The notes beneath the pieces are model-generated. The model searched no databases, was not told where the DNA came from, and saw only the letters and a list, made by a program, of their open reading frames with translations. DNA of 64,000 bases. Source: Anaeromyxobacteraceae bacterium. Lineage in GTDB: Bacteria; Myxococcota; Myxococcia; Myxococcales; Anaeromyxobacteraceae. The stretch spans positions 160,001 through 224,000 of the forward strand of contig JAULAX010000002.1 of assembly GCA_032654565.1 (NCBI GenBank), read 5' to 3'. Below are positions 35,069 to 61,264 of this stretch, in pieces; position 1 is the first letter of the stretch; each line of letters starts with the position of its first letter. The position numbers and the translations under genes are program-made.

Positions 35069-35076
35069 GGGCCGCC

Positions 35077-37074: not shown

Positions 37075-38477
37075 TGCGCACCCAACTCTTCGTCGGAATC
37101 GCCGCGCTCGCCGCCCTGACCGGCTGCGGGCTGGAGAACATCTTCGGGAACGCCGGCCACGCGCCCTACGACCGGCCCGCCTCGCGCATCACCGGGACCC
37201 TGCAGGAGGGCGTCCCCGCCACCAGGCTGGCGGTGCTGGACGGCGCCGGGAACGGGCTGGAGCCCTTCCAGGTGACCGCGGGAGGCGGCGGCTACGAGAT
37301 CCGCCTCCCCTCATCCAAGTACGCCTTCATCCGGATCCAGGGGCGCGGCGGCAACGCCCAGTGGCGCGCCCTGGTCCCCTTCGTCGGGGAGGAGTCCTCG
37401 ACCGTGGAGAACCTGGACGCCCGGTCGCTGACCGAGGTGCTCCTGGTGGAGGCCTGGCTGGGCGCCAGGGGGAAGAAGTTCCTCCAGCTCAATCCGGCGG
37501 CCCACCTCGGCGACGGCTTGACCAGCGGCACCCGGACCCTGATCCGGCGCGACATGGACACCGCGGGGACGCCGACGGCGCAGCTCCTCGGCATGGTCAC
37601 CAGGGTCCTCACCCGGGTCAACCTCTCGGCCGGCTCCGTCGACCCGGACTTCTTCGGGGTGCCGGAGATGACCGGCTGGACGGTGAAGACCAGCCCCCTC
37701 GGCGCCGGCTTCCTGACCCGCAACCCGCTCGACTACGACTCCGACGGCATCGCCGAGAGCGACAGCGCCAAGTTCGACGCCAAGCTGGCCGAGGCGGCCC
37801 AGCGCTACAACCCGGCCGGCTGCGCCGACCCGAGCCGGGTGCGGGTGCTGTTCACCTCCGACTTCCGGGCCAACAAGCTCGACGGCAACTGCGGCGTCAT
37901 CAACCGCTTCAAGTGGGCGGTGGACAAGCCGGGCAAGTCGATGTTCTTCGTCGGCTGGGTCCACCAGGACTCGCCGGTCCAGGACGACAAGGCCGACCAG
38001 CTGCTCGGCGCCGGAACCCCCAACATGGTCCGCATGTACGACGACGGGACCAACGGCGACGAGGTGGCCGGCGACGGCATCTGGACCGTCAGCTTCGACC
38101 TGCCGCCGGGGCTGCGGGTCGGCTACAAGTACACGTGGGGGACCAGTGGGGCCCCCTGGACCGGCAGCGAGGAGTGGCCGGGCAACTCCCGCCTCCTCGA
38201 GGTGCTCGACGTCGGCCCCATCGACCCGGCCACCGGCCAGGGCGATAACTTCGTCTACCGGCGCGACGTGTTCGGCGACGAGGCCACCAACAAGGACCGC
38301 AGCAACCAGAACGGCTCGTCCGACAAGGGGGCCATCACCTGGACCACCGACATGCACGGCTGCGGACCCGAGGTCCGCGAGCAACCCTTCACCGACGGTA
38401 ACGCTTGCGTGTGTGGCACGTCCTGGCACACGCCGGAGTCCGTGGGGCCCCTCACCGTAGCCTGCACGGGCCCCTGA
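37074..38477 (+). CDS. Lipoprotein with choice-of-anchor X-like domain
   Basis: Lipobox LTGC; MYDDGTNGDEVAGDGIWT; YKYTWG; Cys-rich tail. Confidence 0.7.
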   Translation: MRTQLFVGIAALAALTGCGLENIFGNAGHAPYDRPASRITGTLQEGVPATRLAVLDGAGNGLEPFQVTAGGGGYEIRLPSSKYAFIRIQGRGGNAQWRALVPFVGEESSTVENLDARSLTEVLLVEAWLGARGKKFLQLNPAAHLGDGLTSGTRTLIRRDMDTAGTPTAQLLGMVTRVLTRVNLSAGSVDPDFFGVPEMTGWTVKTSPLGAGFLTRNPLDYDSDGIAESDSAKFDAKLAEAAQRYNPAGCADPSRVRVLFTSDFRANKLDGNCGVINRFKWAVDKPGKSMFFVGWVHQDSPVQDDKADQLLGAGTPNMVRMYDDGTNGDEVAGDGIWTVSFDLPPGLRVGYKYTWGTSGAPWTGSEEWPGNSRLLEVLDVGPIDPATGQGDNFVYRRDVFGDEATNKDRSNQNGSSDKGAITWTTDMHGCGPEVREQPFTDGNACVCGTSWHTPESVGPLTVACTGP

Positions 38478-38529
38478 CCACCGCGCCCGGCAGGTGACCG
38501 GGCGCGCCTCGACACCAAGGAGCATCACA

Positions 38530-39492
38530 ATGAAGCGTCTGACCCTCATCTGCTCGGCCCTGCTCGCCTTCGGGCTGGTGGCCTGCAGCGACACCACCAC
38601 CACCAACATCCCGCCTCCCTGCACCCCGTCCCTCTGGGCCAACAACACCATCCCGCCCTGCACCGTCCCGGTGAACTTCTCCGTCGACGACACCGCCAAC
38701 AAGGCCTTCAAGAACGGCGGCGACATCCTCTGGAAGGGCTCGTTCCAGTACGACGCCCCCCACCGGATCGCCTACAAGGACTCGAGCTGGGGCGGGCCGT
38801 ACGTGCCGCTCTATGACGACGGCCCCTGGACCGGCTGGGTGGACACCTCGGTGACCCCGGCGGTGACCCGCTACGGCCACGAGCCGAAGGGCTCGTTCGC
38901 CAAGGACAACATCTGGGGCGCCACCGTCTTCGTCTATCCCCCGGCCACCGGCACCGACACCTGGGAGTACGGCCTGGTCGACAACCTCTACGAGATCTTC
39001 CACGGCAACGGCTGGATGTGGAAGGGCGCCAACGGCACCTTCACGGTGGCCGCCAACGCCACCGCCCCCGTCGACGCGCTCGGCATGACCATCGCCAAGT
39101 TCGGCGACGTCGACTTCCGGCTCGAGCTCGACTCCGCCAACCTGGCGGTCAAGGCGCCGCCCTTCACCACGGCCACCTCGGTCAAGGTGAAGAGCTCGAT
39201 CTGGGGCTGGGGCGAGTACCCGCTGGTCAGCGTCGGCGGCGGCATCTACTCGCTGACCCTCTCGCAGAACTTCGGCCCCGGGACCCAGTTCCCGCACACC
39301 GGCCTCCTCAAGTCGGCCGACAAGCCCGAGTTCGTCTTCGTCCTCGACGGCGCAGAGTACAAGGTCTCCTCGGTGCCGCCGACCACGGGCGTCAAGGCCT
39401 TCACCAAGGCGGCCGCCGCCGGCTCCCTCTGGGTCGAGCAGACGGTCGTCAACCTGGTCAGCAACGGCAACACCTCGATCACCGTTCCGTAG
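38530..39492 (+). CDS. Beta-rich lipoprotein, putative carbohydrate-binding
   Basis: AGGAG SD; lipobox LVAC; LYDDGPW...GHEP.G...DNIWG; Trp/Tyr-rich. Confidence 0.7.
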   Translation: MKRLTLICSALLAFGLVACSDTTTTNIPPPCTPSLWANNTIPPCTVPVNFSVDDTANKAFKNGGDILWKGSFQYDAPHRIAYKDSSWGGPYVPLYDDGPWTGWVDTSVTPAVTRYGHEPKGSFAKDNIWGATVFVYPPATGTDTWEYGLVDNLYEIFHGNGWMWKGANGTFTVAANATAPVDALGMTIAKFGDVDFRLELDSANLAVKAPPFTTATSVKVKSSIWGWGEYPLVSVGGGIYSLTLSQNFGPGTQFPHTGLLKSADKPEFVFVLDGAEYKVSSVPPTTGVKAFTKAAAAGSLWVEQTVVNLVSNGNTSITVP

Positions 39493-49388: not shown

Positions 49389-51083
49389 ATGAACGGCTGC
49401 CTGCTCGCGCTCCTCCTCTCCGGGACCGCCGCCTCGCCGCGCGGGGCCATCGCCACCGCCCACCCGCTGGCCAGCGCCGCCGGGGCCGAGGCCCTCCGCG
49501 ACGGGGGCAACGCCGTCGACGCCGCGGTGGCCGCGGCCCTGGCCCTCTCGGTGGTCCAGAACGAGAGCTCCGGGATCGGCGGCGGCGGCTTCGCGCTGGT
49601 CTGGCTGGCGAAGGAGCGGCGGCTGGTGGCGCTCGACTTCCGCGAGGTGGCGCCGGCCGCGGCCAGCCGCGACATGTTCCTCGTCGACGGCAAGCCGGCG
49701 CCGCGCCGCTCCACCGAGGGCGGCCTGGCGGTGGCGGTGCCGGGCGCGGTCAAGGGATACGCCGAGCTGGCGCGCCGCTTCGGCCGGCTCTCCTACGCCC
49801 GCCTCAGCGAGCCGGCGGCGCGGCTGGCGGAGCGCGGCTTCCAGGTGGGCCCGTACCACGCCCGGGCCGCCACCGAGCAGCGGGAGTGCCTCGGCGCCGA
49901 CCCGGCCGCCGCCGCCGAGTTCCTGGTCCCGGAGACCTCGGCGGCGCCGGGCGCGCCCCCGCGCCGGGTGGCCCGCCGCCCCGGCGACACGCTGCGCCGC
50001 CCCGACCTGGCCCGCACCCTGCGCCTGCTGGGGCGCGACCCCGAGGCGCTCTACCGCGGGGAGCTGGCCCGCAAGCTGGTCACCGCCGTCCGGGCCCGCG
50101 GCGGGCTGCTCACCGCCGCCGACCTGGCCGCCTACCGGACCGTGGAGCGCACCCCGCTGACCGGGACCTTCCGCGGCCACCGGGTGGTCTCCTGGCCACC
50201 GCCCTCGGCGGGCGGGGCCATCGTCATCGGCCTGCTGCAGGCGCTCGAGGGGGATATCACGACGGGTGAAGGCTACCGGCCGGTGGCCCAGCTGCACGCC
50301 TTCGTGGAGGTGGAGAAGCGGCTCTACGCAGCGCGGGCCGGCCGCTTCGCCGACCCGGCCTTCCTCCCCGGCGCCGACGCCGCGGCGGCCGAGCTGGTGA
50401 GCCCGGCCCACGCCAGGCGGCTGCGCGCCGAGGTGGGGGAGCGGGCCACGCCGTCGTCGACCCTCGCCCCGCCGGCGCCGGACGCGCCCGGCGGCGACCA
50501 CACCTCGCACCTCTCGGTGGTCGACGCCGAGGGCAACGCCGTGGCGCTCACCACCACCGTCAACGGCTGGTTCGGCGCCTGCGTGGTGGTGCCGGGGACC
50601 GGGCTCCTGCTCAACAACCAGATGGACGACTTCGACGCCGCGCCGGGGGTCCCCAACGCCTTCGGCCTGGTCGGCACCGGCGTCAACGGGGTGGCCCCGG
50701 GGAAGCGGCCGCTCTCCTCGATGGCCCCGACGCTGGTCTTCGACGCCGAGGGGCGGGTGGTGCTGGCGGTGGGGGCGCCGGGCGGCGCGACCATCCCCTC
50801 CACGGTGGCCCAGGTGATCATGCGCTTCCTCGGCGACGGGATGCCGCTCGACCAGGCGCTGGGGGCGCCGCGGGTTCACCACCAGTGGCTGCCGGACGCC
50901 GTGGTGGTGGAGCCCTTCGGCCTCGACGCCGCCACCGCCGAGGGGCTGCGGGGGCGCGGCCACGCGCTGAGCTTCCGGGCCCACCCGTTCGGCAACCCGC
51001 AGGCGGCGGCCATCGACTGGAAGACCGGGCTGCGGGAGGCGGCCAGCGAGCCGCGCTACGACGGGGCCCCGGCCATTCCCTGA
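49389..51083 (+). CDS. ggt: Gamma-glutamyltransferase
   Basis: GGNAVDAAVA, LDFRE.AP, HTSHLSVVD (Thr nucleophile), NNQMDDF, KRPLSSM. Confidence 0.95.
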   Translation: MNGCLLALLLSGTAASPRGAIATAHPLASAAGAEALRDGGNAVDAAVAAALALSVVQNESSGIGGGGFALVWLAKERRLVALDFREVAPAAASRDMFLVDGKPAPRRSTEGGLAVAVPGAVKGYAELARRFGRLSYARLSEPAARLAERGFQVGPYHARAATEQRECLGADPAAAAEFLVPETSAAPGAPPRRVARRPGDTLRRPDLARTLRLLGRDPEALYRGELARKLVTAVRARGGLLTAADLAAYRTVERTPLTGTFRGHRVVSWPPPSAGGAIVIGLLQALEGDITTGEGYRPVAQLHAFVEVEKRLYAARAGRFADPAFLPGADAAAAELVSPAHARRLRAEVGERATPSSTLAPPAPDAPGGDHTSHLSVVDAEGNAVALTTTVNGWFGACVVVPGTGLLLNNQMDDFDAAPGVPNAFGLVGTGVNGVAPGKRPLSSMAPTLVFDAEGRVVLAVGAPGGATIPSTVAQVIMRFLGDGMPLDQALGAPRVHHQWLPDAVVVEPFGLDAATAEGLRGRGHALSFRAHPFGNPQAAAIDWKTGLREAASEPRYDGAPAIP

Positions 51084-51108
51084 GGGAAGCCGGGCGCTTC
51101 GGGCCCTC

Positions 51109-51142
51109 TTCCTCCCTTCCCAGAGTTCCTCCCTTCCCAGAG
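51109..51142. repeat. Perfect 17-bp tandem direct repeat TTCCTCCCTTCCCAGAG x2
   Basis: 51109-51125 and 51126-51142 are identical. Confidence 0.85.
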
Positions 51143-51273
51143 TAGTTCGTGACGCGGTGGCGGCCGGTGGCCTCGCCCCTGGACCGGTCCGCGCCGCGGA
51201 CCCGGCGGCCGTCTCGCGACCTCGGCACGCGCCGCCCCGGCCCCTTTCACCAGCAAGTTCACGCGCTCCGCGC

Positions 51274-51289
51274 CGGCACGGCGGATGCT
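51274..51289 (+). promoter_or_regulatory. Sigma54 (-24/-12) promoter candidate for the type III cluster
   Basis: CGGCACG-GCGG-ATGCT with exact GG-N10-GC spacing; predicted start near 51300, just before SD GGAGGA and ATG 51315. Confidence 0.6.
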
Positions 51290-51314
51290 CCCTCCTCGGC
51301 CCGGAGGAACCACC

Positions 51315-51818
51315 ATGAGCCGAGTCGAGTCGATCAACGTCGCCACCACCACCGAGCGCAAGACCGTCCCAGGGCGCTTCGAGGCGGCGCTGCAGGGGGC
51401 CACCCGTGCGCTCGCCTCCGGGGTGGTGGGCGCCGTCGAGCTGGCCGCCCCCGCCGTCCCCTTCGGCACCGTGCTGGCCGGGGCGGTGCGCGGGGGGCTC
51501 CAGGGCGGCCCCGGGCCGTCCTCCGGTCCGACCGGCGGGGAGCGGCTCTCCCGGCTCGGCCCCGGCGGCGCCCCGCTGGGGAGCGGGGGACCCGGCGGCG
51601 TCCCCCTCACCGGCGGAAGTCCCAGCGGCGGCGGCGGCTCGCCGGGGGACCTGCTGGAGGCGACCCGCGTCATGCAGCAGGAGGCGCAGGCCATGAACCT
51701 GCAGTACCTGCAGCTCCAGGAGCGGATGCAGCAGGAGAACCGCGAGTTCACGGCCCTCTCCAACGTCATGCGGGTCAAGCACGACACCGCCCGCACCGCC
51801 ATCGGCAACGTCCACTAG
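51315..51818 (+). CDS. Putative type III needle/filament-like subunit
   Basis: C-terminal helix YLQLQERMQQENREFTALSNVMRVKHDTARTAIGNVH; first gene, ahead of the rod-like gene and sctJ. Confidence 0.5.
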   Translation: MSRVESINVATTTERKTVPGRFEAALQGATRALASGVVGAVELAAPAVPFGTVLAGAVRGGLQGGPGPSSGPTGGERLSRLGPGGAPLGSGGPGGVPLTGGSPSGGGGSPGDLLEATRVMQQEAQAMNLQYLQLQERMQQENREFTALSNVMRVKHDTARTAIGNVH

Positions 51819-51827
51819 GAGCCGACC

Positions 51828-52166
51828 GTGCCCATCCCACCCGTGGCCCCGGCCGCCGTCGCCTCCCCCGCACCGCGCCCCGCGGCGGGGTCCGGCTTCG
51901 AGGCCCGGCTCGCCGCCCACGCCACCCCACCCCGGGCCCCGCCTCCCCCGGCGCCGCTGGCCCAGGCCCTCCGCTCGCTGGAGGCCTCGCAGGCCCGGCT
52001 CGACCGGGTGCTGCAGGCCGCCCGCGCCGGCCGGACCTTCACGGCGGGTGAGTTGCTGGCGCTCCAGGCGGACACCTACCGCTTCGCGCAGACGCTCGAC
52101 GTGGCCTCCAAGCTGGTGGAGCACGGGGTCCAGTCGGTGAAGCAGGCGGTCAACGCCCAGGTCTAG
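51828..52166 (+). CDS. Putative type III inner-rod protein (SctI/HrpB2-like)
   Basis: ELLALQ...LDVASKLVE.GVQSVKQAVNAQ C-terminus; directly upstream of sctJ. Confidence 0.6.
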   Translation: MPIPPVAPAAVASPAPRPAAGSGFEARLAAHATPPRAPPPPAPLAQALRSLEASQARLDRVLQAARAGRTFTAGELLALQADTYRFAQTLDVASKLVEHGVQSVKQAVNAQV

Positions 52167-52174
52167 AGGCCACC

Positions 52175-52900
52175 GTGCGCCCTCCCCTCGCCACCGCCCC
52201 GCTGCTCCTCGGCCTGCTGCTCGGCGGCTGCGCCGACGAGCCGCTGCTCCACGACCTGGCCGAGCGCCAGGCCAACGAGGTGCTGGTGGCCCTCGACGAG
52301 GAGGGCGTGGCCGGCACCAAGGCCCGGCAGGAGGGAACCGAGGCGGCCTGGACCGTGGCGGTGGCGCGCGCCGAGGTGGGCAAGGCCCACCGGGTGCTGG
52401 CGGCCCGGCAGCTGCCGCGGGCCCGGCCGCAGGGACTGGGCGAGGTCTTCGGCCAGGGCGGCATGGTCCCCACGCCGGTCGAGGAGCGGGCGCGCTGGCT
52501 CCACGCCCTCTCCGGCGAGCTGGCCCGCAGTCTCGAGGCGCTCGACGGCGTCATCGAGGCCCGGGTCCACCTCGGCCTGCCGGCCGAGGACCCGCTCCAC
52601 CCCGGCGCCCGCCCGGCGCCCCGGGCGGCGGTGCTGGTCAAGTGCCGGCCGGCGGCCTGCGGGACGCTGCGCGACCTGGAGCCGGGGCTCCGGGCGCTGG
52701 TGGCCGGCTCGGCCGACGGGCTCTCGGCGGAGGCGGTGGCGGTGGTGATCGCCGAGGCGGCGCCGGTGCCGGCCGCGGCGCCGCTGGTCGGCCGGACCCG
52801 GCGATTCGCCCCCTGGCTGGCCGGCCTGGCGGCGCTGGCGGCCTGCGCCGTGGGGGCCCTGGCCTGGCGGGAGCGCCGCGGCCCCGGCGAGGCGGCGTGA
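52175..52900 (+). CDS. sctJ: Type III inner-membrane ring lipoprotein (YscJ/HrcJ)
   Basis: Lipobox LGGC; L.ERQANEV, F...GMVPTP.EE.AR, DGVIEARVHL; C-terminal TM. Confidence 0.9.
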   Translation: MRPPLATAPLLLGLLLGGCADEPLLHDLAERQANEVLVALDEEGVAGTKARQEGTEAAWTVAVARAEVGKAHRVLAARQLPRARPQGLGEVFGQGGMVPTPVEERARWLHALSGELARSLEALDGVIEARVHLGLPAEDPLHPGARPAPRAAVLVKCRPAACGTLRDLEPGLRALVAGSADGLSAEAVAVVIAEAAPVPAAAPLVGRTRRFAPWLAGLAALAACAVGALAWRERRGPGEAA

Positions 52901-53229
52901 CCGAGGCGCTGCACCGGCTGGTGGCGCTGGCCGCCGTGCTGGCCCCGGCGCGCGCGGTGCGCCTGCTCGGCCGGCTCCAGGACCCGGAGGGGGCCGAGGC
53001 GGTGCGGCGGGTCGGGGCGCTGGCCCTGGCGCCCCGGCGAGCCCGGCTGGCGGCGCTGGCGTCGGCGCTCCCCGGCGCCGGATCGGCGTCACCGACCCTC
53101 CCCGCCTCCCCGGGCACCCTGCCCGACCACCCGCTGGCCCGGCGGCTGGAGGTGGAGCGGCGCAGCCGTGCGACCGCGGGGCGGACCCTGGTCCGCGGCG
53201 CGACCGCTCCCGCCCCCCGCCCCACCTGA
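52897..53229 (+). CDS. Small helical protein at the SctK/OrgA position
   Basis: GTGA overlap with sctJ; position only. Confidence 0.45.
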   Translation: MTEALHRLVALAAVLAPARAVRLLGRLQDPEGAEAVRRVGALALAPRRARLAALASALPGAGSASPTLPASPGTLPDHPLARRLEVERRSRATAGRTLVRGATAPAPRPT

Positions 53230-53276
53230 GATCGCGGGTGGTTCCGAGCGGCACGGGGCGTGAAGTCTCCGAGACC

Positions 53277-54260
53277 ATGGCGCTCCCCTTCGACCTCCCC
53301 TCCATCTCCCGCGGCTTCGCCGCGCTCGACCGGGGCGCCCGGGCCACCGGCGCCGAGGCGGCCGCGGCGGCGGCCCGCGCCCTGGCCGAGGTGCTCGGCG
53401 TCGAGGTGACGCTGACCGGCTCGGCCCGTCCGGTGGCCGCCGGGCCGGCCCGCCCGGCCGTCCGCCTGGCCATCGAGCTGGCGGCGCTGCCCGGCTCGGC
53501 CCTGCTCGAGGTGGACCCGTCGCTGGTGGTCCGGCTGGTGGGGCTGGTCTCGGGCGGCGGCGAGTCGCTGGCCGGCGCCACGTCGCTGACCCCGCTCGAG
53601 GAGTCGGCGCTCGAGCTGCTGGTGCTGGCCGCCATCGACGGCGCCGCCGAGCTCGACGCCGTCACCGATCGGCTGGCCCCTCGCCTGGCCCGCGCCGCGC
53701 CGCCACCTCGGTCGCCGCTGGCCATCGATCTCGAGGTGTGCGCCGGCGGGGTTCGTGGCCGCGCCAGGCTGCTCCTCCCGCCCGCGGCGGTGGAGGCGCT
53801 GGCCACGCCGCCCGAGCTGGCCGAGCCGCTGCTGGCCTTCCCCCTCTTCGCCTCGCTCCGGGGCGGCTCCGCGCCGCTGCAGCCCGGGGAGCTGCGGGCC
53901 CTGGCCCCCGGCGACGTGGTGCTGGCCGACCCCCCGGCCGACGGGCGCCACCGCCTCGCCTTCCCCGGCGGCTTCACCGCCGTCGGCACCCTGACCGACG
54001 GCTCATTCCTCGTGGAGGAGACGATGATGGAGACACCCCTGGCGCAGGTCCCGGTCCTGCTCGAGGTGGAGCTGGCGCGGGTCCCGCTGACACTCAGCGA
54101 CCTCGCCCGCCTCACCCCGGGCGCCACGCTGCCCGTCCAGCTCGACCGGCGCGGGCTGGTGACGCTGCGGATCGGCGAGCGGCCGATCGGCCGCGGCGAG
54201 CTGGTGGAGATCGACGGCGCGGTCGGCGTGCGGGTGCTCTCGCTGGAGGTGCTGCCGTGA
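53277..54260 (+). CDS. sctQ: Type III C-ring / sorting-platform protein (FliM/FliN-like SPOA domains)
   Basis: L.PGDVV; VPV.LEVELAR..L...DL..L.PG; IGRGELVEIDG.VGVRV. Confidence 0.85.
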   Translation: MALPFDLPSISRGFAALDRGARATGAEAAAAAARALAEVLGVEVTLTGSARPVAAGPARPAVRLAIELAALPGSALLEVDPSLVVRLVGLVSGGGESLAGATSLTPLEESALELLVLAAIDGAAELDAVTDRLAPRLARAAPPPRSPLAIDLEVCAGGVRGRARLLLPPAAVEALATPPELAEPLLAFPLFASLRGGSAPLQPGELRALAPGDVVLADPPADGRHRLAFPGGFTAVGTLTDGSFLVEETMMETPLAQVPVLLEVELARVPLTLSDLARLTPGATLPVQLDRRGLVTLRIGERPIGRGELVEIDGAVGVRVLSLEVLP

Positions 54261-54601
54261 TCACGCTCCCCTTCGGCGCCCGCGGCCCGGCGCTGGCCCT
54301 GGTCGCGGTCGGCCTCCTCGGGGGCGCCGCGCTGGCGCTCCTCCCCGGCGAGGCGGGGGTGGTGGCCGCCCGCGCCGGGCTGCTGGTGCTCGCGCTCGGC
54401 GCCGGGGTGGTGCTCCTGCGCCGCCGGGCGGCCGGGGACCCGCCGCCGCGGCTCCGGGTGGTGGCCCGGGCGGCGCTGGCCCGCGACGCCGCCGCGGTGC
54501 TGGTGGAGCTGGATGGCCGGCCCATGCTGCTGGGGGTGGGGCGCGACGGCGTCCGGCTGCTGATGGAGACCGGGTGGATGGGACCGGAGGCGGAGCCGTG
54601 A
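54257..54601 (+). CDS. fliO: FliO-like membrane protein
   Basis: TM segments, then LRVVAR..L...VLVELDGR.MLLGVG...V.LL; between the FliN-like and FliP-like genes. Confidence 0.65.
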   Translation: MITLPFGARGPALALVAVGLLGGAALALLPGEAGVVAARAGLLVLALGAGVVLLRRRAAGDPPPRLRVVARAALARDAAAVLVELDGRPMLLGVGRDGVRLLMETGWMGPEAEP

Positions 54602-55275
54602 TCGCCGAGCTGCCGGTCGCCGGCCCGCTGGCCGCCCGCCCCGCCGACTGGCTGCTGCTGCTCGGCCTCACCGCGCTGGCGCCGGTGCTGCTGGTCACCC
54701 TCACCTCCTTCCTGAAGATCTCGGTGGTGCTCTCGGTGCTCCGCTCGGCGCTGGGCGCGCCGCAGGTCCCGCCCACCACCGCGGTCACCGGGCTGGCGCT
54801 GGTCCTGACCCTGGCGGTGATGGCGCCGGTGGGCGAGGCCGCCTGGGCGGCGGCGCGGATCGTCCCCCCGGGCGGAGAGGCCGGGGCCCTGGCCTCCGGG
54901 GCCCGGGCCCTGGTCCCGGTGAAGGGCTTCCTGGCCCGCTTCGCCCGCGCCGACGACCGCGCGGTCTTCCTCGACCTGGCCCGCCGGCTGCGGCCCGGGG
55001 CGGTGGAGGTGGACGGCGACGACCTGGCCGTGCTGGCCCCGGCCTTCATGGTCTCCGAGCTGCGCCGCGCCTTCACCATCGGCTTCCTGGTCTTCCTCCC
55101 CTTCCTGGTGGTCGACCTGGTGGTCGCCAACGTCCTGCTGGCGCTGGGGCTGACCCAGCTCTCGCCCACCGCGGTCTCGCTGCCGCTCAAGCTCCTCCTG
55201 CTGGTGGCGGTCGATGGCTGGCGGCTGCTGGCGCGCGGGCTGGCCCTGGCCTACGCCCCCGGGAGCCTCCCGTGA
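54598..55275 (+). CDS. sctR: Export gate protein SctR/FliP
   Basis: TSF.KISVVLS.LR.ALG..QVPP; PAF.VSEL..AF.IGF..FLPF.VVDLVVA; SLPLK...DGW. Confidence 0.92.
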   Translation: MIAELPVAGPLAARPADWLLLLGLTALAPVLLVTLTSFLKISVVLSVLRSALGAPQVPPTTAVTGLALVLTLAVMAPVGEAAWAAARIVPPGGEAGALASGARALVPVKGFLARFARADDRAVFLDLARRLRPGAVEVDGDDLAVLAPAFMVSELRRAFTIGFLVFLPFLVVDLVVANVLLALGLTQLSPTAVSLPLKLLLLVAVDGWRLLARGLALAYAPGSLP

Positions 55276-55538
55276 CCGGCACCGTGCTGCACCTCGGTCG
55301 CGAGGCGCTGCTGCTGGCGCTGCTGGTCTCGGCGCCGCCGCTCTGCGCCGCCCTGGTGGTCGGGCTCCTCACCGGGGTGCTGCAGGCGGCCACCCAGCTG
55401 CAGGAGCACGCCCTCGGCGCCGTCCCGCGCATCGCCGCGGTGATCGCGGCGCTGCTGGTGACCGGCCCGTGGATGGGGGCGCGGCTGGCCCGCTTCGCCG
55501 CCGAGGTGCTGGCGCTGGCGGCCGGAGGCGTGCCGTGA
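55272..55538 (+). CDS. sctS: Export gate protein SctS/FliQ
   Basis: LVVGL..GVLQAATQLQE..L..VPR; GPWM. Confidence 0.9.
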   Translation: MTGTVLHLGREALLLALLVSAPPLCAALVVGLLTGVLQAATQLQEHALGAVPRIAAVIAALLVTGPWMGARLARFAAEVLALAAGGVP

Positions 55539-56323
55539 GCGGCTGGCCCCCCGACGCCGGCGCGCTCCACGGGCCGCTGCTCCACGCCCTCCGGCTGCTG
55601 CCGGTGGCGATCCTCTCGCCGTTCCTCGGCGGCCCGCTGGTCCCGGCGCCGCTCCGGCTGCTGCTGGGGATCGGGCTGGGGACGGTGGCCTGGGCGCTGG
55701 GCGGCGCGCGGCCGGTGGCCGCCCCGGGGCTGGAGCTGGCGGCGCTGGGGCTGCGGGAGCTGGCGCTGGGCGCCGGGCTGGCGGTGGTGATGGCCGCCCC
55801 GCTGGAGGCGGCGCGGGCCGCCGGGCGGCTGGCCGACACCGCCCGGGGCGCCACCCTGGCGGAGCTGCACGTGGCGCCGCTGCGCCAGCGCGAGACCGCG
55901 CTCGGTGACCTGCTGGTGCAGCAGCTGGTGGTGCTGGCCGCGGTGGGCGGCGGACTCCAGCTGGTCCTGCGCGGTCTCCTCCTCTCCTTCGTCGCCCTCC
56001 CCGTCGGCGCCCCCTTCGCCGCCCTGCCGGTGGCCGAGCTGGCGCTGCGGGCCTCCTCGCTGGTGCTGGCCACGGCGGTGGCGGTGGCGGCCCCGGCGGT
56101 GGCCGGCGTCCTCGCCGCCGAGCTGGCGGTGGCGGCGGTGGTGCGGGTCGCCCCCGGGCTCCAGCTGCCCGAGCTGACGCAGCCGGCGCGCGCCTCGCTG
56201 GGGTTGCTGGCCATGGCGCTGGCCGCCTCGGCCGGCGCCGGCCGGCTGGTGGCGCTGCTGGCCCAGGCCGCCGACGTCCAGGCGCTGTTCGCCGCGCTGG
56301 CCCGGCCGGGCGTGACGCCATGA
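55535..56323 (+). CDS. sctT: Export gate protein SctT/FliR (divergent)
   Basis: R...P.LGG..VP...R; RELALG; AG.LAD..RG; SF..LPVG; R.AP.L; gene order R-S-T-U. Confidence 0.8.
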   Translation: MSGWPPDAGALHGPLLHALRLLPVAILSPFLGGPLVPAPLRLLLGIGLGTVAWALGGARPVAAPGLELAALGLRELALGAGLAVVMAAPLEAARAAGRLADTARGATLAELHVAPLRQRETALGDLLVQQLVVLAAVGGGLQLVLRGLLLSFVALPVGAPFAALPVAELALRASSLVLATAVAVAAPAVAGVLAAELAVAAVVRVAPGLQLPELTQPARASLGLLAMALAASAGAGRLVALLAQAADVQALFAALARPGVTP

Positions 56324-57354
56324 GCGGGGAGCGGACCGAGCGCCCGTCACCGAAGCGGCTGGCCCAGGCCCGGCGCCAGGGCGAGGTGGCGGTCTCGCGC
56401 GAGCTCTCCGGCGCCGTCTCGCTGCTGGCCGGCCTGGCGGCGCTGGCGGCCTGCGGCCCCTGGTGGTTCTCGGCCCTGGCCGCCGAGGTGCGGGGCGGGC
56501 TGCAGGCGGCGGTCGCGGCCGAGCGGGTCCCCGGCGGCGCGCTGGCCTCGGCGGCGCTGGCGGTGGTCCGCCTCTCGGCCTTCCCGGCCCTGGCCGCGCT
56601 CGCGGCGGCGCTGGCGGCCGGGGCGCTCCAGAGCGGCGGGCTCTGCACCCTCCGCCCGCTGGCGCCGAAGCTGGAGCGGATCGATCCCTTCCGCGGGCTG
56701 GCCCGGCTCTGCTCGGCGGCCCGGCTCGCGGCCCTCGGGCTGGGGCTGCTCAAGGCGGCGCTGGTGATCGCGGCCGCCCTCCATGGCTGGCGCGCCACCG
56801 CCGCCACGCTGGCCCAGCTGCCGCGGGCCACGGCGACCGGCGCGGCGCTGGCCGCCCTGCTCTGGCCGCTGGCCTGGCGGCTGGCGGGCCTGCTGCTGCT
56901 GCTCGGCGGCGCCGACTGGCTGCTGGTCCGCCGTCGCCACCTGCGGCAGCTGCGGATGTCCCGCGACGAGCTCCGGCGCGAGGCCCGCGAGGACGACGGC
57001 GACCCGGCCCACCGGGCGGAGCGGCGGCGCCTCCACCGGGCCCTGGCCGAGGCGCCGCCGGTGGCCCGCGCCACCTGCCTGGTGGTCAACCCCACCCACG
57101 TGGCCGTGGCCCTCCTCCACCGGCGCGGCTCGGACGAGGCGCCGCGGGTGCTGGCCAAGGGGTCCGGGAGCGCCGCCGCTCGGCTCCGCTCCCAGGCGCG
57201 GCGGGCCGGCGTGCCCATCGTCCGCGATCCGCCCCTGGCGCGGGCGCTCCACCGGCTGGCCGAGGTGGGCGACGAGATCCCCGAGGAGCTCTACGACGCC
57301 GCCGCCGCGGCGCTCGCCCACCTGCACGGAACCCCGCCGCCGGAGGCCACGTGA
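56320..57354 (+). CDS. sctU: Export switch protein SctU/FlhB
   Basis: ERTERPS.KRL..AR..G.V..S.EL; LRMS.DE...E...DGDP; NPTH autocleavage motif. Confidence 0.93.
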   Translation: MSGERTERPSPKRLAQARRQGEVAVSRELSGAVSLLAGLAALAACGPWWFSALAAEVRGGLQAAVAAERVPGGALASAALAVVRLSAFPALAALAAALAAGALQSGGLCTLRPLAPKLERIDPFRGLARLCSAARLAALGLGLLKAALVIAAALHGWRATAATLAQLPRATATGAALAALLWPLAWRLAGLLLLLGGADWLLVRRRHLRQLRMSRDELRREAREDDGDPAHRAERRRLHRALAEAPPVARATCLVVNPTHVAVALLHRRGSDEAPRVLAKGSGSAAARLRSQARRAGVPIVRDPPLARALHRLAEVGDEIPEELYDAAAAALAHLHGTPPPEAT

Positions 57355-59405
57355 CCTGGCTCCACCCCCTGCTCTCCCGCCTGCGCGGCGCCGGCGACGC
57401 CGGCTTCGCCCTGGCCGTGCTCGCCCTGGTGGTGCTGCTGGTGGCGCCGGTGCCGCCCGCCCTGCTCGACGCCGGGCTGGCCTTCTCGCTGGCGCTGGCC
57501 GCCACCGTGCTGGTGGTGACGCTGCTGGCCCGCGACGCCCTGGCCTTCGCCAGCTTCCCCTCGCTGCTGCTCCTCACCACCCTGCTCCGGCTCGCCCTCT
57601 CGGTCTCCTCGACCCGCCTCGTGTTGACCCGGGGTGAAGCGGGGCGGGTCATCGAGGCCTTCGGCCGCGTGGTGGTGCAGGGGAGCCCGGTGGCCGGGGC
57701 GGTGGTCTTCGCCATCCTCACCCTGGTCCAGCTGCTGGTGGTGGCCAAGGGGGCGGAGCGGGTGGCCGAGGTGGCGGCGCGCTTCACCCTCGACGCCCTC
57801 CCCGGCAAGCAGATGGCCATCGACGCCGACCTGCGGGCCGGCCTGCTCGACGGCGCCGGGGCGGCGCGGCGCCGGCGGGCCCTGGAGCGGGAGAGCCAGC
57901 TCTACGGCGCCATGGACGGGGCCCTCAAGTTCGTGAAGGGCGACGCCGTCGCCGGCGTGGCCATCGTGCTGGTCAACGCCGTGGGCGGGCTGGTGGCGCT
58001 CTCGCTCCGCGGCCGGCCGCTGGGCGCGGCGGCCGAGCGGGCGGTGCTGCTGGCGGTCGGCGACGGCCTCACCGCCCAGCTCCCGGCGCTGCTGGTGGCG
58101 GTGGCCGCCGGGGTGGCGGTGACGCGGGTGGCCTCGGCGGAGGACGGCCAGCGGCTCGGCAGCGAGGTGGGGCGGCAGCTCTTCGGCGAGCCCCGGGCGC
58201 TGGCGGCGGTGGCGCTGCTGCTCGGCGCCATCGGCGTGGCGCCCGGGCTGCCGGCGGCGCCGTTCCTGCTGCTCTCGGCCGGGGCCGGGGCGCTGGCCTG
58301 GCGCGGGCTGCGGCGCGCCCCGGAGGCGGCCGGGCTCGAGGCGGGGGAGGGATCGACCGAGCCGGCCGGCGGCCCGGCGGGACCGGGCGACGGCCCGCTC
58401 CGCGACGAGGACGCCGGCGCCGTGGTGCTGGAGCTGGCCGAGGACCTCCTCGAGCTGGACAGCGCCGACGGCGGCGCCTTCGTGGGGGAGCTGGTGCCGG
58501 CGCTGCGCGAGCGGCTCTGGCGCGAGCTCGGCGTGGTGGCCCCGCCGCTCCTGGTCCGGCAGGCGCCGCTGGAGCCGGGCCGCTGGGCCCTGCTCATCCA
58601 CGGGGTCCCGGCCGCCGGGGGGCGGGTGGCGCTCCACGAGCGGCTCTCGCTGGCCCCGCTCGACGACCTGGCGCTGGCCGGGATCTCGCTGCGGCCGGAG
58701 CTGGAGCCGGCCAGCGGTCGGCGCGCCGCCGTGGTGTCGGACCTGGACTCGGCGCGGGCCCTGGCGCTGGGGCCGGTGCTGGGCTCCCTGGAGCGGGTCG
58801 CCGCCGCCTGCGCCGCCGAGCTGGAGCGGAGCGCCGGCCTGCTGGTGGGCGTCCAGGAAGCCCAGGCGCTGCTCGACCGGCTCGAGCCGCACGCCCCGGC
58901 GCTGGTGCGCGAGGTGTCACGCCAGGTGGCCCCGGCCCTGCTGGCCGAGGTGCTGCGCCGGCTGCTCGAGGAGGGGGTGTCGATCCGCCCGCTGCGGACC
59001 ATCCTCGAGGCGCTGCTGGAGGCGGGCGGCGGGCCGCGCGGCGCGGCGGCGCTGGCGGCAGCGGCCCGACGGTCCCTGCGGCGCCAGATCGGCCACCGGG
59101 CCGGCGGCGGCCGGGCCCTCCCGGCGCTGCTGCTGGATCCGGTCGCCGAGCAGAGCGTCCGGGAGTCGCTGCTCGGGGAGTGGCCGGCGCTCGAGCCGGC
59201 GCGGGCCGCGCTCCTCCTCGAGGCGCTGGAGCGGGCGCTCCTGGCGGCGGGCGGGACCCCGGTGCTGCTGGCCAGCGGCGACGTGCGGCGGGCGGTCCGG
59301 CTGCTGGTGGCCCCCCGCTGGCCGCGGCTGCAGGTGCTCAGCTACGACGAGCTGCCCCCGGAGCAGGCCATCCTGCCGGTGGGGCGGCTCGAGCTGGCGG
59401 CGTGA
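57351..59405 (+). CDS. sctV: Major export apparatus protein SctV/FlhA
   Basis: FPSLLL.TTL.RL; KGAERVAEVAARFTLDALPGKQMAIDADL; YGAMDGA.KFVKGDA; LL.EGVSIR; VLSYDEL. Confidence 0.94.
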   Translation: MTWLHPLLSRLRGAGDAGFALAVLALVVLLVAPVPPALLDAGLAFSLALAATVLVVTLLARDALAFASFPSLLLLTTLLRLALSVSSTRLVLTRGEAGRVIEAFGRVVVQGSPVAGAVVFAILTLVQLLVVAKGAERVAEVAARFTLDALPGKQMAIDADLRAGLLDGAGAARRRRALERESQLYGAMDGALKFVKGDAVAGVAIVLVNAVGGLVALSLRGRPLGAAAERAVLLAVGDGLTAQLPALLVAVAAGVAVTRVASAEDGQRLGSEVGRQLFGEPRALAAVALLLGAIGVAPGLPAAPFLLLSAGAGALAWRGLRRAPEAAGLEAGEGSTEPAGGPAGPGDGPLRDEDAGAVVLELAEDLLELDSADGGAFVGELVPALRERLWRELGVVAPPLLVRQAPLEPGRWALLIHGVPAAGGRVALHERLSLAPLDDLALAGISLRPELEPASGRRAAVVSDLDSARALALGPVLGSLERVAAACAAELERSAGLLVGVQEAQALLDRLEPHAPALVREVSRQVAPALLAEVLRRLLEEGVSIRPLRTILEALLEAGGGPRGAAALAAAARRSLRRQIGHRAGGGRALPALLLDPVAEQSVRESLLGEWPALEPARAALLLEALERALLAAGGTPVLLASGDVRRAVRLLVAPRWPRLQVLSYDELPPEQAILPVGRLELAA

Positions 59406-59446
59406 CCGGGACCGCGGGGGCCGCGGTCACATCGCCCCCAGACGAC

Positions 59447-59472
59447 AAAAGCGCCCGTGGCTCCGGGCGCTT
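59447..59472 (-). terminator. Intrinsic terminator of ihfB (may also act on the convergent sct operon)
   Basis: AAGCGCCCG-TGGCTC-CGGGCGCTT stem; short T-tract on the minus strand. Confidence 0.6.
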
Positions 59473-59501
59473 CGGGGACGGCGGGAGGTGCGGCGCCTCG
59501 G

Positions 59502-59822
59502 CTACGCCCCGGGCGTGGGCGAGCCGGAGCCGCCGCTCGGCTCCTCGCCGAGGTTGACCCGGTCGCGCAGCTCCTTGCCGGTCCGGAAGAGGATGCCGCG
59601 CTTCGGCTTGACCGGGATGACCTCGCCGGTCTTGGGGTTGCGCCCCTGGTACCCCTCGTAGTGCTTCACGTGGAAGGCGCCAAGTCCGCGGATTTCGATG
59701 TTCTCACCGCGGCAGAGGGCGTCCTTCATCGAGTCGAAGATGGTCTCGATGGTGGACTCCGCCTGCTTCTGGGTCACACCGCGCTTCACCACGAGGATGT
59801 TGATGAGATCCGACTTCAGCAT
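59502..59822 (-). CDS. ihfB: Integration host factor beta / HU-family protein
   Basis: KSDLI, IEIRGLGAF, GRNPKTGE, GKELRDRVN. Confidence 0.85.
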   Translation of the reverse strand: MLKSDLINILVVKRGVTQKQAESTIETIFDSMKDALCRGENIEIRGLGAFHVKHYEGYQGRNPKTGEVIPVKPKRGILFRTGKELRDRVNLGEEPSGGSGSPTPGA

Positions 59823-59873
59823 CGGCGCTCCGCGTTGACGGCCCCTCACTGGAGACCGCTTTAGGGTGAAGGG

Positions 59874-59902
59874 AGACTAGCCGAAGGTTCCGAAATCGGC
59901 AA
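59874..59902 (-). promoter_or_regulatory. Sigma70 promoter candidate for ihfB
   Basis: TTGCCG-N17-TAGTCT on the minus strand. Confidence 0.55.
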
Positions 59903-59962
59903 GGGTTCCACGGGCATAACGCATCGGGGTCGACTGACCCCCCCGAAAGGCCGCGATCGGGC

Positions 59963-61264
59963 TCACGCCGGCCCCGGCTCCGGCTGCGGCGGCTGGTCCT
60001 GACCGGCCCCGGCCGGACGCGCCTCGGCGAGGTCGCAGAGCTGCTTCAGCGTGGTGCGCTGCAGCCACTTCGCCCCCTCCTCCTCGACCTCGGCCAGCGT
60101 CCGCTCCACCACGTCGAGCGCCGCCGAGGCCCGGGTCGGGGCCCGGCCGATCACCGCACGGCGCACGTCGAGGAGCGTGATCAGCTCCTCGGGCCGGCCC
60201 GGGACCAGCCCCCCGCCCTCGAGCGGCTTGAGCAGGGCGGCGGCCCGGAGCGCCTCGACCACCTCGGCCACGTCGCCATGGAGGACGCGGAGTGAACGGG
60301 CCAGCGCCCCCTCGTCGGGCGCCAGGCCGCCCGGACGCCGGTGCTCCAGCGCCACGGCGAGGAGCACCTCCCCGGCCAGCGTCTCGCGGGTGGTCGGGTG
60401 ATCGGCCAGCAGCCCGCCGCGCCAGAGCGCCGGGGCGAACTGCACCACGTAGGCGACGCGGGCGCCGGCCAGCAGGATGGCCCAGGAGACGAAGAGCCAG
60501 AGCAGGAAGGTGGGGAGGACCGCCACCGACCCGTAGATGGCGCTGTAGTTGAAGAAGCGCCGGACCGCCTCGGCGTAGCCCCACTTGGCCGCCTCCCAGG
60601 TCAGGCCGGCCACCAGCCCGGCGCTGACCGCGGCGTTGAGCCGGACCCGGGTGTGAGGCACCAGCCCGTAGATGACGGTGAAGACCGCGCAGGTGAGCAG
60701 CACGCTGCCGAGCGCGGCCAGCGAGCCGAAGCCGGTGCCGGCCAGCCAGGCGCGGGCCCCCACCCCCAGCGCCAGCGAGCCGGCCAGCAGCACCGGCCCC
60801 AGCGTCAACCCCACCCAGTAGATGACCGCCTGCCGGCCGAGGGACCGGCGGCGGCTGATCCCCCACTGGTCGTTGATGGCCCGCTCGACGTTGGAGAAGA
60901 GAGAGACCGCCGACCAGGCCAGCAAGGCGCCGCCGACCAGCCCCGCCGACGCGGCGTGGGCGTTGCTGGTGAAGCGGGTCAGGTAGGGCTCGAGCGTGGC
61001 CCGGGCGCCGACCGCCAGGTTGTCGAGGATGAAGGCGTTGAGCTGGGCGGCGATCCGATCCATGCCGGTGGCCGCCTGCACCACCGAGAAGATCACCACC
61101 AGCGCCGGGACCACGGCGAAGATGGAGAGGTAGGTGAGCGCCATGGCCCGCAGGCGGATGGACTCGCCGTCGAAGGCGCGGGTCACCGCCTCCACCGTGG
61201 CGCGCCAGAGCCGGCGGGCTCGATCGCCCAGCTGCTCCAGCGCCGCCCCGCCCTCGCCGGTCAT
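59963..61264 (-). CDS. YihY/BrkB-family membrane protein with C-terminal winged-helix
   Basis: A.ALTY.S..AVVP, IN..WG, Y..IYGS.A.LP.FLLW...SW...L.GA; P...ITLLDV. Confidence 0.88.
   Translation of the reverse strand: MTGEGGAALEQLGDRARRLWRATVEAVTRAFDGESIRLRAMALTYLSIFAVVPALVVIFSVVQAATGMDRIAAQLNAFILDNLAVGARATLEPYLTRFTSNAHAASAGLVGGALLAWSAVSLFSNVERAINDQWGISRRRSLGRQAVIYWVGLTLGPVLLAGSLALGVGARAWLAGTGFGSLAALGSVLLTCAVFTVIYGLVPHTRVRLNAAVSAGLVAGLTWEAAKWGYAEAVRRFFNYSAIYGSVAVLPTFLLWLFVSWAILLAGARVAYVVQFAPALWRGGLLADHPTTRETLAGEVLLAVALEHRRPGGLAPDEGALARSLRVLHGDVAEVVEALRAAALLKPLEGGGLVPGRPEELITLLDVRRAVIGRAPTRASAALDVVERTLAEVEEEGAKWLQRTTLKQLCDLAEARPAGAGQDQPPQPEPGPA

Follow-up and report, generated by a model that had tools for sequence, protein, structure and literature searches.

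Non-flagellar type III secretion systems (T3SSs) have been described from myxobacteria in two forms. Abby and Rocha (2012) reported "Myxo" loci of a short and a long kind from Cystobacterineae, among them Anaeromyxobacter, and placed them at the root of the non-flagellar tree; the available portion of their article (PMC3459982) states that these loci have no secretin, SctF, tip or translocon, and argues for functional loci and for an intermediate whose secretion may not reach past the inner membrane. In other studies, the long locus of Myxococcus xanthus (T3SS*, MXAN_2434-2464), which carries SctD, SctL and SctN, is described as acting with the Kil Tad pilus in prey lysis, for which it is required (available portions of PMC10433427 and PMC12075869). 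A 2025 report, in the portion available (PMC12403147), gives FliO as present in both non-flagellar T3SSs of M. xanthus and cites Thiery et al. for the short system being dispensable for prey killing. For the flagellum, Thomas et al. (2008) described the gene cluster of A. dehalogenans 2CP-C and, in the available part of the text, listed fliJ as absent from it.

Here, a cluster of eleven genes is analysed in a 64,000-nucleotide stretch of DNA, referred to as the window, from an Anaeromyxobacteraceae bacterium (assembly GCA_032654565.1, contig JAULAX010000002.1, positions 160,001 to 224,000). The cluster is very probably an intact copy of the published short, secretin-less myxobacterial T3SS, an export machine that would end in the periplasm and has its ATPase encoded in trans. 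The kind of system, its "hybrid" reading and its FliO are already in print. The same holds for the flagellum-to-injectisome intermediate that an initial annotation of the window had proposed, a reading that is supported here and was published in PMC3459982. What is added here is the location, conservation and phylogenetic kind of the ATPase module encoded in trans, the count of one ATPase for two gates in three relatives, and the case for a needle family.

Gene content, conservation and phylogeny of the cluster

The cluster occupies positions 51315-59405 of the window and consists of eleven co-oriented + strand genes, all with intact frames, in the order orfA (needle-like), orfB (SctI-like), sctJ, orfK, sctQ, fliO, sctR, sctS, sctT, sctU and sctV. 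Open frames are plentiful on both strands because the G+C content of the window is about 75%, and the genes were chosen by family scans together with the G+C of third codon positions. A caller using third-codon-position G+C alone independently recovered all eleven. Seven of the ten gene junctions overlap. Pfam and NCBIfam name eight of the genes (SctJ, SctQ, FliO, SctR, SctS, SctT, SctU and SctV), and orfA, orfB and orfK have no family match of their own in these scans. The genes and their two neighbours are listed below with the expectation value (E) or score of their best-supporting models.

51315-51818, + strand: orfA, 167 amino acids (177 if the start is at 51285), candidate divergent subunit of the SctF (needle) family
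51828-52166, + strand: orfB, 112-amino-acid SctI-like inner-rod/adaptor protein
52175-52900, + strand: sctJ, inner-membrane ring lipoprotein (PF01514, E 2.3e-22; TIGR02544, 147 bits versus 36 for FliF)
52897-53229, + strand: orfK, 110 amino acids, unassigned, at the position held by sctK in Yersinia
53238-54260, + strand: sctQ, cytoplasmic ring/sorting-platform protein (FliMN_C, E 2e-17; TIGR02551, 88.9 bits; alternative start 53277)
54257-54601, + strand: fliO, assembly chaperone for SctR/FliP (PF04347, 31.3 bits, cut-off 22)
54574-55275, + strand: sctR, export gate (PF00813, E 2e-59; NF009438, 227 bits, above cut-off; alternative start 54598)
55272-55538, + strand: sctS, export gate (PF01313, E 1e-25)
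55535-56323, + strand: sctT, export gate (PF01311, E 3e-25)
56320-57354, + strand: sctU, switch protein (PF01312, E 9e-84; NPTH autocleavage motif present in the translation)
57351-59405, + strand: sctV, major export gate protein (FHIPEP, E 5e-174; TIGR01399 hrcV, 558.7 bits versus 501.8 for FlhA)
49389-51083, + strand: ggt, upstream flank, outside the system (PF01019, E 3e-157)
59502-59849, - strand: HU/IHF-family gene (ihfB), conserved downstream neighbour (PF00216, E 1.5e-28)

The injectisome models of NCBIfam score slightly above the flagellar ones for SctJ, SctR, SctT, SctU and SctV, and the FliQ model scores slightly higher than the injectisome model for SctS; all of these scores are below the curated cut-offs except that of the SctR subfamily model NF009438. 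The translation of SctJ contains a lipobox (LLGGC) and a hydrophobic stretch at its C-terminus. Collectively, the cluster encodes a complete inner-membrane export machine, comprising SctRST with the FliO chaperone, SctU, SctV, the SctJ ring and the SctQ platform. The family scans, the codon-position signal and the overlapping junctions all agree with the initial annotation, which had described eleven intact, co-oriented and mostly overlapping genes between ggt and ihfB. It had also reported that several expected components were missing. In a family search of the whole genome no FliI/SctN ATPase fell within the window, and neither did a secretin in a secretin search of the genome; FliH/SctL and a second YscJ/FliF gene were likewise not found in the window, and Pfam gave no other T3SS family among its 42 other open reading frames.

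The assembly (4.57 Mb, 21 contigs, 98% complete) contains two FHIPEP genes, namely the SctV of the cluster and a flagellar-type FlhA on another contig, designated C9. Contig C9 also carries FliF, FliH, FliI and a second FliO, and the organism therefore possesses a separate flagellar set. A genome search found FliF on C9 only, and the cluster is without FliF, FliG, rod, hook or Mot genes. The system is not tied to the flagellum, which has its own FliF, FliH, FliI, FliO and FlhA.

Conservation was assessed by searching for SctV in 41 genomes (this one and 40 relatives), with matches in 33. The surroundings were compared at 13 places: 11 short-type loci and two loci of the long kind, L057 and L058, in 9-Mb genomes (L, G and C numbers denote compared loci, related genomes and contigs, respectively). 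All 11 short-type loci have the order orfA, orfB, sctJ, sctQ, sctR, sctS, sctT, sctU, sctV, HU/IHF gene, BrkB-like gene. It spans at least three family codes and is still seen where SctV identity drops to 47-49%, in 9-Mb genomes with a different family code. The HU/IHF gene adjoins sctV in each of these 11 loci, and ggt is adjacent to the cluster in three of them, only within the genus. Compared with two congeners, the ten cluster genes other than orfK have a ratio of nonsynonymous to synonymous substitution rates (dN/dS) of 0.16-0.46 (leaving out sctQ against L049, with 11% identity in a wrong frame), and these values are meaningful only relative to the flanks (ggt, 0.30-0.39; ihfB, 0.17-0.19; BrkB-like gene, 0.40-0.45) because third positions above 95% G+C compress dS. 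Thus read, the genes are far from the neutral value of 1, which the initial annotation, in combination with a lack of transcription, would have taken as refuting its reading, except for orfK at 0.66-0.68, the weakest constraint in the cluster.

The phylogeny of SctV was examined with 103 SctV and FlhA sequences from the compared loci, 80 named related loci and references from E. coli, Yersinia, Ralstonia and NGR234; L048, L105, L113 and L143, of odd length or truncated, were left out of the trees. In a FastTree phylogeny of all 103 rows, the SctV of the window falls into a clade of 17 rows (support 99) with Anaeromyxobacteraceae, Archangiaceae and Myxococcaceae. This short clade forms the sister group of the remaining non-flagellar rows, and the flagellar rows, among them the FlhA of the same organism, are distant from it. 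A quick IQ-TREE analysis (LG+C20) of 47 of the 103 rows, in which the long-branch rows L172, L163 and L139 were left out, recovered 13 short rows as one clade and seven long rows as another, each with 100 in the Shimodaira-Hasegawa-like approximate likelihood ratio test (SH-aLRT), and split 41 non-flagellar from six flagellar rows at 100. A further clade at 99 joins the SctV of long, Bryobacteraceae, Chlamydiae and classical injectisome (Yersinia/rhizobial) systems, with the short clade outside. SctV is thus on the non-flagellar side, apart from both FlhA and the clade of the T3SS* long locus, and a grouping of the proteins within flagellar clades as the only flagellar export genes of the organism, which the initial annotation had named as fatal to its reading, did not turn up.

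The position of fliO was followed through all 33 loci with sctR by a Pfam scan of the frame ending at the sctR start. Immediately before sctR, a FliO-like gene is present in all 16 short loci (four score below the 22-bit cut-off), in nine of nine long-type loci at 35-44 bits (L143, absent from the tree, was counted as long-type by identity only) and in two of two Bryobacteraceae loci. In the six classical injectisome-type loci, FliO was found in none, and the gene upstream of sctR is SctQ in all six. The gene in the window has both the PF04347 score and the position directly upstream of the FliP homologue. On these counts, FliO is a retained trait of deep non-flagellar lineages rather than a peculiarity of this locus. 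The two Bryobacteraceae (Acidobacteriota) loci carry FliO before sctR at 42-44 bits (L112:3973-4398 and L121:665-1000) and a protein with an orfA-like C-terminal domain (E 5e-8 to 8e-12); both traits therefore extend beyond Myxococcota.

The outer membrane and the ATPase module encoded in trans

The genome contains two secretins only, PilQ with PilNOP on contig C7 and a GspD preceded by a PDZ protein (a GspC-GspD pair) about 16 kb downstream of sctV on the same contig, each within its own type IV pilus or type II gene cluster. A third, Tad-type secretin was not found in the genome search. SctD (TIGR02500) was also not found in the genome, which is weak evidence as the control of this search was silent too. 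Nothing of the translocon kind appeared among the 42 other open reading frames of the window by Pfam, and no genome-wide search for translocon genes was made.

It has been proposed that the M. xanthus T3SS* works through the Kil Tad pilus, and the present machine could similarly cross the outer membrane by docking on GspD or PilQ. The GspC-GspD pair on the same contig and the PilQ on C7 would be at hand, and a model of Kil/T3SS* cooperation exists for the paralogous long locus (available portions of PMC10433427 and PMC12075869). However, both secretins sit in complete-looking contexts of their own, no Tad-type secretin was detected, and the short system of M. xanthus is cited as uninvolved in prey killing (PMC12403147, portion available). 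These observations make docking an unlikely explanation, and the borrowed outer-membrane pore suggested in the initial annotation gains no support. Its link to T3SS* predation is sound for the long locus of M. xanthus and does not carry over to this locus, which is of the paralogous short kind.

The missing ATPase was sought in the rest of the genome. Two FliI/SctN-family ATPases score above the family cut-off, one being the FliI on C9 and the other a gene on contig C17, in the order rpoB, rpoC, a sigma-70-family gene, a FliH-domain protein, the ATPase and a 145-amino-acid coiled-coil protein.

C17:213000-216500 (L009:8160-11420): sctL-sctN-fliJ-like trio, directly after rpoB-rpoC and the sigma gene

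The FliH-domain stator matches PF02108 at E 1e-17, and in NCBIfam SctL scores 55 bits versus 36 for FliH. The ATPase has ATP-synt_ab and T3SS_ATPase_C domains and an intact Walker A motif (GAGVGKST), and scores 552.6 bits as SctN versus 530.7 as FliI. The third gene matches the FliJ model only (NCBIfam, E 9e-7, below cut-off). An energising module of SctL stator, SctN ATPase and FliJ/SctO-like stalk is thus encoded in trans beside rpoBC on C17. The order sigma-sctL-sctN is conserved through the family, with the same downstream gene next in most loci. The sigma gene itself encodes 244 amino acids and is RpoH/RpoS-like within the sigma-70 family.

A FastTree phylogeny of 40 ATPase rows places the FliI of C9 in the flagellar clade and the C17 SctN among the 31 rows of the non-flagellar clade (support 99), where its sister group (support 95) consists of the ATPases from G025, G027, G029, G036 and G039. 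Two relatives are informative about its partner. G012 has one SctV-type gene, of the short kind, and one T3SS ATPase, with no flagellar copies found; G017 (96% complete) is without short SctV and without non-flagellar ATPase. From these patterns, the C17-type trio accompanies the short locus rather than the flagellum. An ATPase in cis was absent from every short locus examined. The comparisons support a non-flagellar ATPase for the short system, encoded at another place in the genome, in line with the borrowing from another locus considered in the initial annotation. In one congener, G001, two copies of the non-flagellar ATPase region were observed (G001:C2:2-826 and G001:C5:623833-625125; L080 and L090). 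One is cut by a contig end and shows 83% identity; the other is only 58-64% identical, next to sigma and sctL neighbours with 94% and 72% identity. These odd copies may reflect an assembly problem or local divergence.

Flagellar export is possible without FliHI under some conditions. It could accordingly be argued that the gate runs on the proton-motive force alone and that the C17 ATPase belongs elsewhere, an option also raised in the initial annotation and favoured by the lack of a cis ATPase in the short loci examined. The SctL-SctN-FliJ-like trio, however, would have no other T3SS gate to serve in G012, and short SctV and non-flagellar ATPase occur together and are missing together in G017. 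The presence of the trio on C17 renders this option unnecessary, and it is considered very unlikely.

Less probable still is the older annotation of the M. xanthus loci applied to this cluster, namely that it is the decaying relic of a once complete injectisome that no longer works. Secretin, SctD, translocon and cis ATPase are missing in the searches made and orfK is poorly conserved, but eleven of eleven frames are open, the genes are in the same order in every one of the 11 short-type loci, dN/dS resembles that of neighbouring housekeeping genes, and the NPTH and GAGVGKST motifs are intact; Abby and Rocha also argue for function in the text available (PMC3459982), and the relic reading is already largely refuted. 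Equally improbable is a second, auxiliary flagellar export apparatus, with the C17 trio supplying flagellar functions such as the FliJ missing from the A. dehalogenans cluster: although FliO is present, the order sctQ-fliO-sctRST-sctU-sctV mirrors fliN-fliO-fliPQR and flhBA, the third C17 gene matches the FliJ model only and fliJ is listed as absent from the 2CP-C cluster (Thomas et al. 2008, available part), SctV and SctN group with non-flagellar proteins, the lipoprotein is of the SctJ type and not FliF, the cluster and trio persist where no flagellar FlhA or FliI was found (as in G012), and the flagellar cluster has a FliO, FliH, FliI and FlhA of its own.

The reading of a short, secretin-less T3SS energised in trans suggests the following mechanism. 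The ATPase complex would dock on SctQ and SctV and, together with the proton-motive force, would export orfA and orfB, the small products of the first two genes of the operon. SctI (orfB) and the needle-like orfA would then polymerise on SctRST into a short axial structure, which, for want of a dedicated secretin, SctD or translocon, is predicted to end in the periplasm. Substrates would be delivered to the periplasm or the outer-membrane region and not injected into another cell.

The head of the operon and the needle question

The first gene, orfA, more likely starts at 51315 than at 51285, as a GGAGGA motif precedes the ATG at 51315 and the database copy also has 167 amino acids. The N-terminal part of the protein is disordered and rich in Gly and Pro, and the C-terminal part forms one long conserved helix; in the AlphaFold model, helix 120-176 has a predicted local distance difference test score (pLDDT) above 90 and the remainder is below 50. 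Orthologues of orfA are present in 11 of 11 short-type loci, with weak matches to the needle family PF09392 in three and to HrpF in four. A profile of the last 62 residues found 2032 representative proteins at E <= 0.001 among 1.84 billion, and in all 150 rows listed the match reaches the C-terminus to within about one residue. Among the loci compared, this profile matches all short loci, the Bryobacteraceae loci and one Eisenbacteria locus.

The same profile also matches tandem, near-identical small genes in long loci, two or three per locus. These genes, of about 72 residues, are placed between sctU and sctV in the long loci of Corallococcus, Cystobacter and G029, and examples are the following.

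L109:7350-8561: tandem genes of about 72 residues, Corallococcus aberystwythensis
L058:6849-7589: tandem genes of about 72 residues, G029
L143:5732-6487: tandem genes of about 72 residues, Cystobacter fuscus
L120:7929-8123: gene of the same kind in a long locus

An hhalign alignment of the C-terminal part of orfA with the tandem-gene family spans 57 columns, runs to the last residue and has 97.5% probability (E 6.5e-12). The tandem proteins match PF09392 (T3SS_needle_F) at positions 5-70 of 71 with E 6e-5 to 9e-5; these matches score 23 bits, under the cut-off of 29.4, and E ranges from 6e-5 to 0.04 across the listed loci. Furthermore, the tandem-gene profile matches the PDB chain 7y6c_F, from a needle/co-chaperone entry, at E 8.7e-4. 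When orfA and the tandem genes are combined in one joint profile, 7y6c_F is again matched (E 0.002), and MxiH, the Shigella needle, aligns from end to end at E 0.66. Chain 7y6c_F has 43 residues and was named co-chaperone family by its depositors; from its length and sequence, it may really be the C-terminal half of a needle subunit.

Other comparisons gave no such signal. The full-length profiles of orfA and orfB found nothing meaningful among PDB sequences, and the C-terminal profile of orfA alone had no match there. None of the hhalign comparisons of orfA and orfB with E. coli FliE, YscF, YscI or each other was significant (probabilities below 1%). The 120 listed homologues of the orfA profile are close relatives without Pfam domains, and of those with a source name nearly all are called "hypothetical protein". 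Pfam searches of the best 149 representatives of the C-terminal family gave no consistent family: the needle, HrpF and HrpA models match two each, and coiled-coil noise is equally frequent. Neighbours in the ESM Atlas include minority shares of PF09392 and were kept as leads only. For the short locus, orfA has no direct family match to SctF, and the link runs through the tandem genes to PF09392 and to needle chains in the PDB.

The evidence that orfA and the tandem genes are divergent SctF needle subunits is weak to moderate, and the assignment of orfA to the SctF family is put at close to, but not above, an even chance. This needle-like reading may be a new point, as the literature search, with supplements outside its scope, found no description of needle-like genes in these loci. 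A broader proposal can be put forward tentatively, and with rather less confidence than an even bet: the secretin-less myxobacterial T3SSs would not be needle-less, and the earliest non-flagellar T3SS would have kept FliO, SctI and a polymerising SctF-like subunit. In such a system a filament would be built within or across the periplasm, fed by a single SctL-SctN-SctO module that can be unlinked and can serve two export gates. If orfA and the tandem genes are indeed needle-like, the "needleless" label and the inferred loss of SctF in the Myxo systems need revision.

The second gene, orfB, lies directly upstream of sctJ, the same position as sctI in Yersinia. Its orthologues match PF17001 (T3SS_basalb_I; YscI/HrpB/PscI) in seven of 12 cases, with a best E of 2.9e-5, and the copy in the window does not match. 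The orfB profile finds the bona fide SctI/HrpB2 of a Lentisphaeria locus at E 1.1e-4. The model of orfB is a helical hairpin (42-66 and 73-111); a Foldseek search of it against the PDB gave nothing at E <= 0.001, with FliE chains among the weak top rows. On this evidence, orfB is accepted as the probable SctI, in agreement with Abby and Rocha.

The third protein of this group, orfK, was detected by tblastn in two of the 11 short-type loci only, and its codon G+C pattern is coding-like with the lowest score of the cluster. In one other locus (L051:5423-7828, in G020), sctJ and sctQ are separated by about 2.4 kb, compared with about 0.3 kb here, with an insertion at the orfK position. Of the labels in the initial annotation, needle-like and rod-like gain indirect support from orthologues and profiles, and sctK-like, which comes from position, does not.

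Several points weigh against the reading of the cluster as a short T3SS with its ATPase in trans. First, the assignments of orfA and orfB draw on sub-threshold or transitive similarity, orfA and Yersinia YscF are not significantly similar in a direct hhalign comparison (probability below 1%), and the sctK-like label of orfK follows its position. Second, G025, G029 and G036 carry both short and long SctV and one T3SS ATPase above the cut-off, which belongs to the long locus in G029 and G036; the short system therefore does not have the ATPase to itself, and the count suggests that one ATPase module can serve two gates. Third, at the non-flagellar base of the SctV tree, the short clade, the Polyangiaceae/Sandaracinaceae rows and two single rows join in a polytomy, and the SctV rows of the short clade have a deviant amino-acid make-up flagged by IQ-TREE; because of both, the clade is called deep on the non-flagellar side and not the first branch. 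Fourth, the compression of dS described above also belongs here, as does the fact that the periplasmic end-point is deduced from absent genes. Finally, the operon is known here from its genes, and its pairing with the C17 ATPase from genes and trees.

The remainder of the window is ordinary chromosome, including priA, def, rpoD, dnaG, the his operon, maltodextrin use and RNase E/G. A consensus scan of positions 50800-60000 found no promoter or terminator site, as expected at 78% G+C. On the - strand at 14911-15684, a 257-amino-acid protein with RNase H/RVT_3 domains in its C-terminal half (residues 128-252) adjoins a zinc-ribbon protein amid housekeeping genes. On the + strand at 35056-39492, three consecutive open reading frames (672, 469 and 320 amino acids) have no Pfam match at E <= 1e-8 and sit in the maltodextrin/pullulanase region between two Glucodextran_C (SLH-like) proteins.

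Comparison with known systems

Compared to the Ysc injectisome of Yersinia, the cluster shares the orders sctI-sctJ-sctK (with orfK at the place of sctK), preceded by a candidate needle gene, and sctQ-R-S-T-U, as well as the NPTH motif in SctU. It differs in that YscC, YscD and the ruler, gatekeeper, tip, translocon, chaperones and effectors were not found here, and in having FliO, which is absent from Ysc. The pairing of SctC with SctD that marks a canonical injectisome is not seen.

Compared to the flagellar export apparatus (fliMNOPQR, flhBA and fliHIJ of E. coli), FliO again stands directly upstream of the FliP homologue with a FliN-domain protein before it, and a FliH-domain stator and FliJ-like stalk are present in both. 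However, the locus here has a SctJ lipoprotein instead of FliF and a non-flagellar phylogeny; its SctV and ATPase fall outside the flagellar clades of FlhA and FliI, and FliF, FliG and rod genes are not among its neighbours.

The T3SS* of M. xanthus is likewise a secretin-less, non-flagellar T3SS with SctJ, SctI, SctQ, FliO and SctRSTUV, and among ATPases from outside the family, its SctN is closest to that of C17. It differs in its paralogous SctV clade, in SctD, SctL and SctN encoded in cis and in LcrH-like chaperones, as given in the available part of a review; the cluster here has neither a long-clade SctV nor these three genes in cis. A long locus was not found in this genome, which holds two FHIPEP genes only. 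The genetic setting is simple: a single non-flagellar gate and a single unlinked, non-flagellar ATPase module exist beside a separate flagellum, no long locus or Tad secretin was found, and the role of the short system is testable in it without the redundancy of M. xanthus.

The short Myxo locus is the closest match. As set out in the available portion of PMC3459982, it has the export apparatus, SctJ, the inner rod and SctQ, with an ATPase in the genome; it is without secretin, SctD and translocon, and it shows a conserved order, vertical inheritance and a deep non-flagellar branch. The cluster in the window has the gene set and the SctV clade of the short Myxococcales T3SS, the same absence of secretin, SctD and translocon in the searches made, and a non-flagellar ATPase in the genome. 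The short system is the best living candidate for a step between the flagellar export apparatus and the injectisome, a question to which a single copy adds little by itself. Compared with the published description, nothing essential is different, and the point of divergence lies in the first gene, which looks SctF-like here, where SctF is stated to be absent in the available text of PMC3459982.

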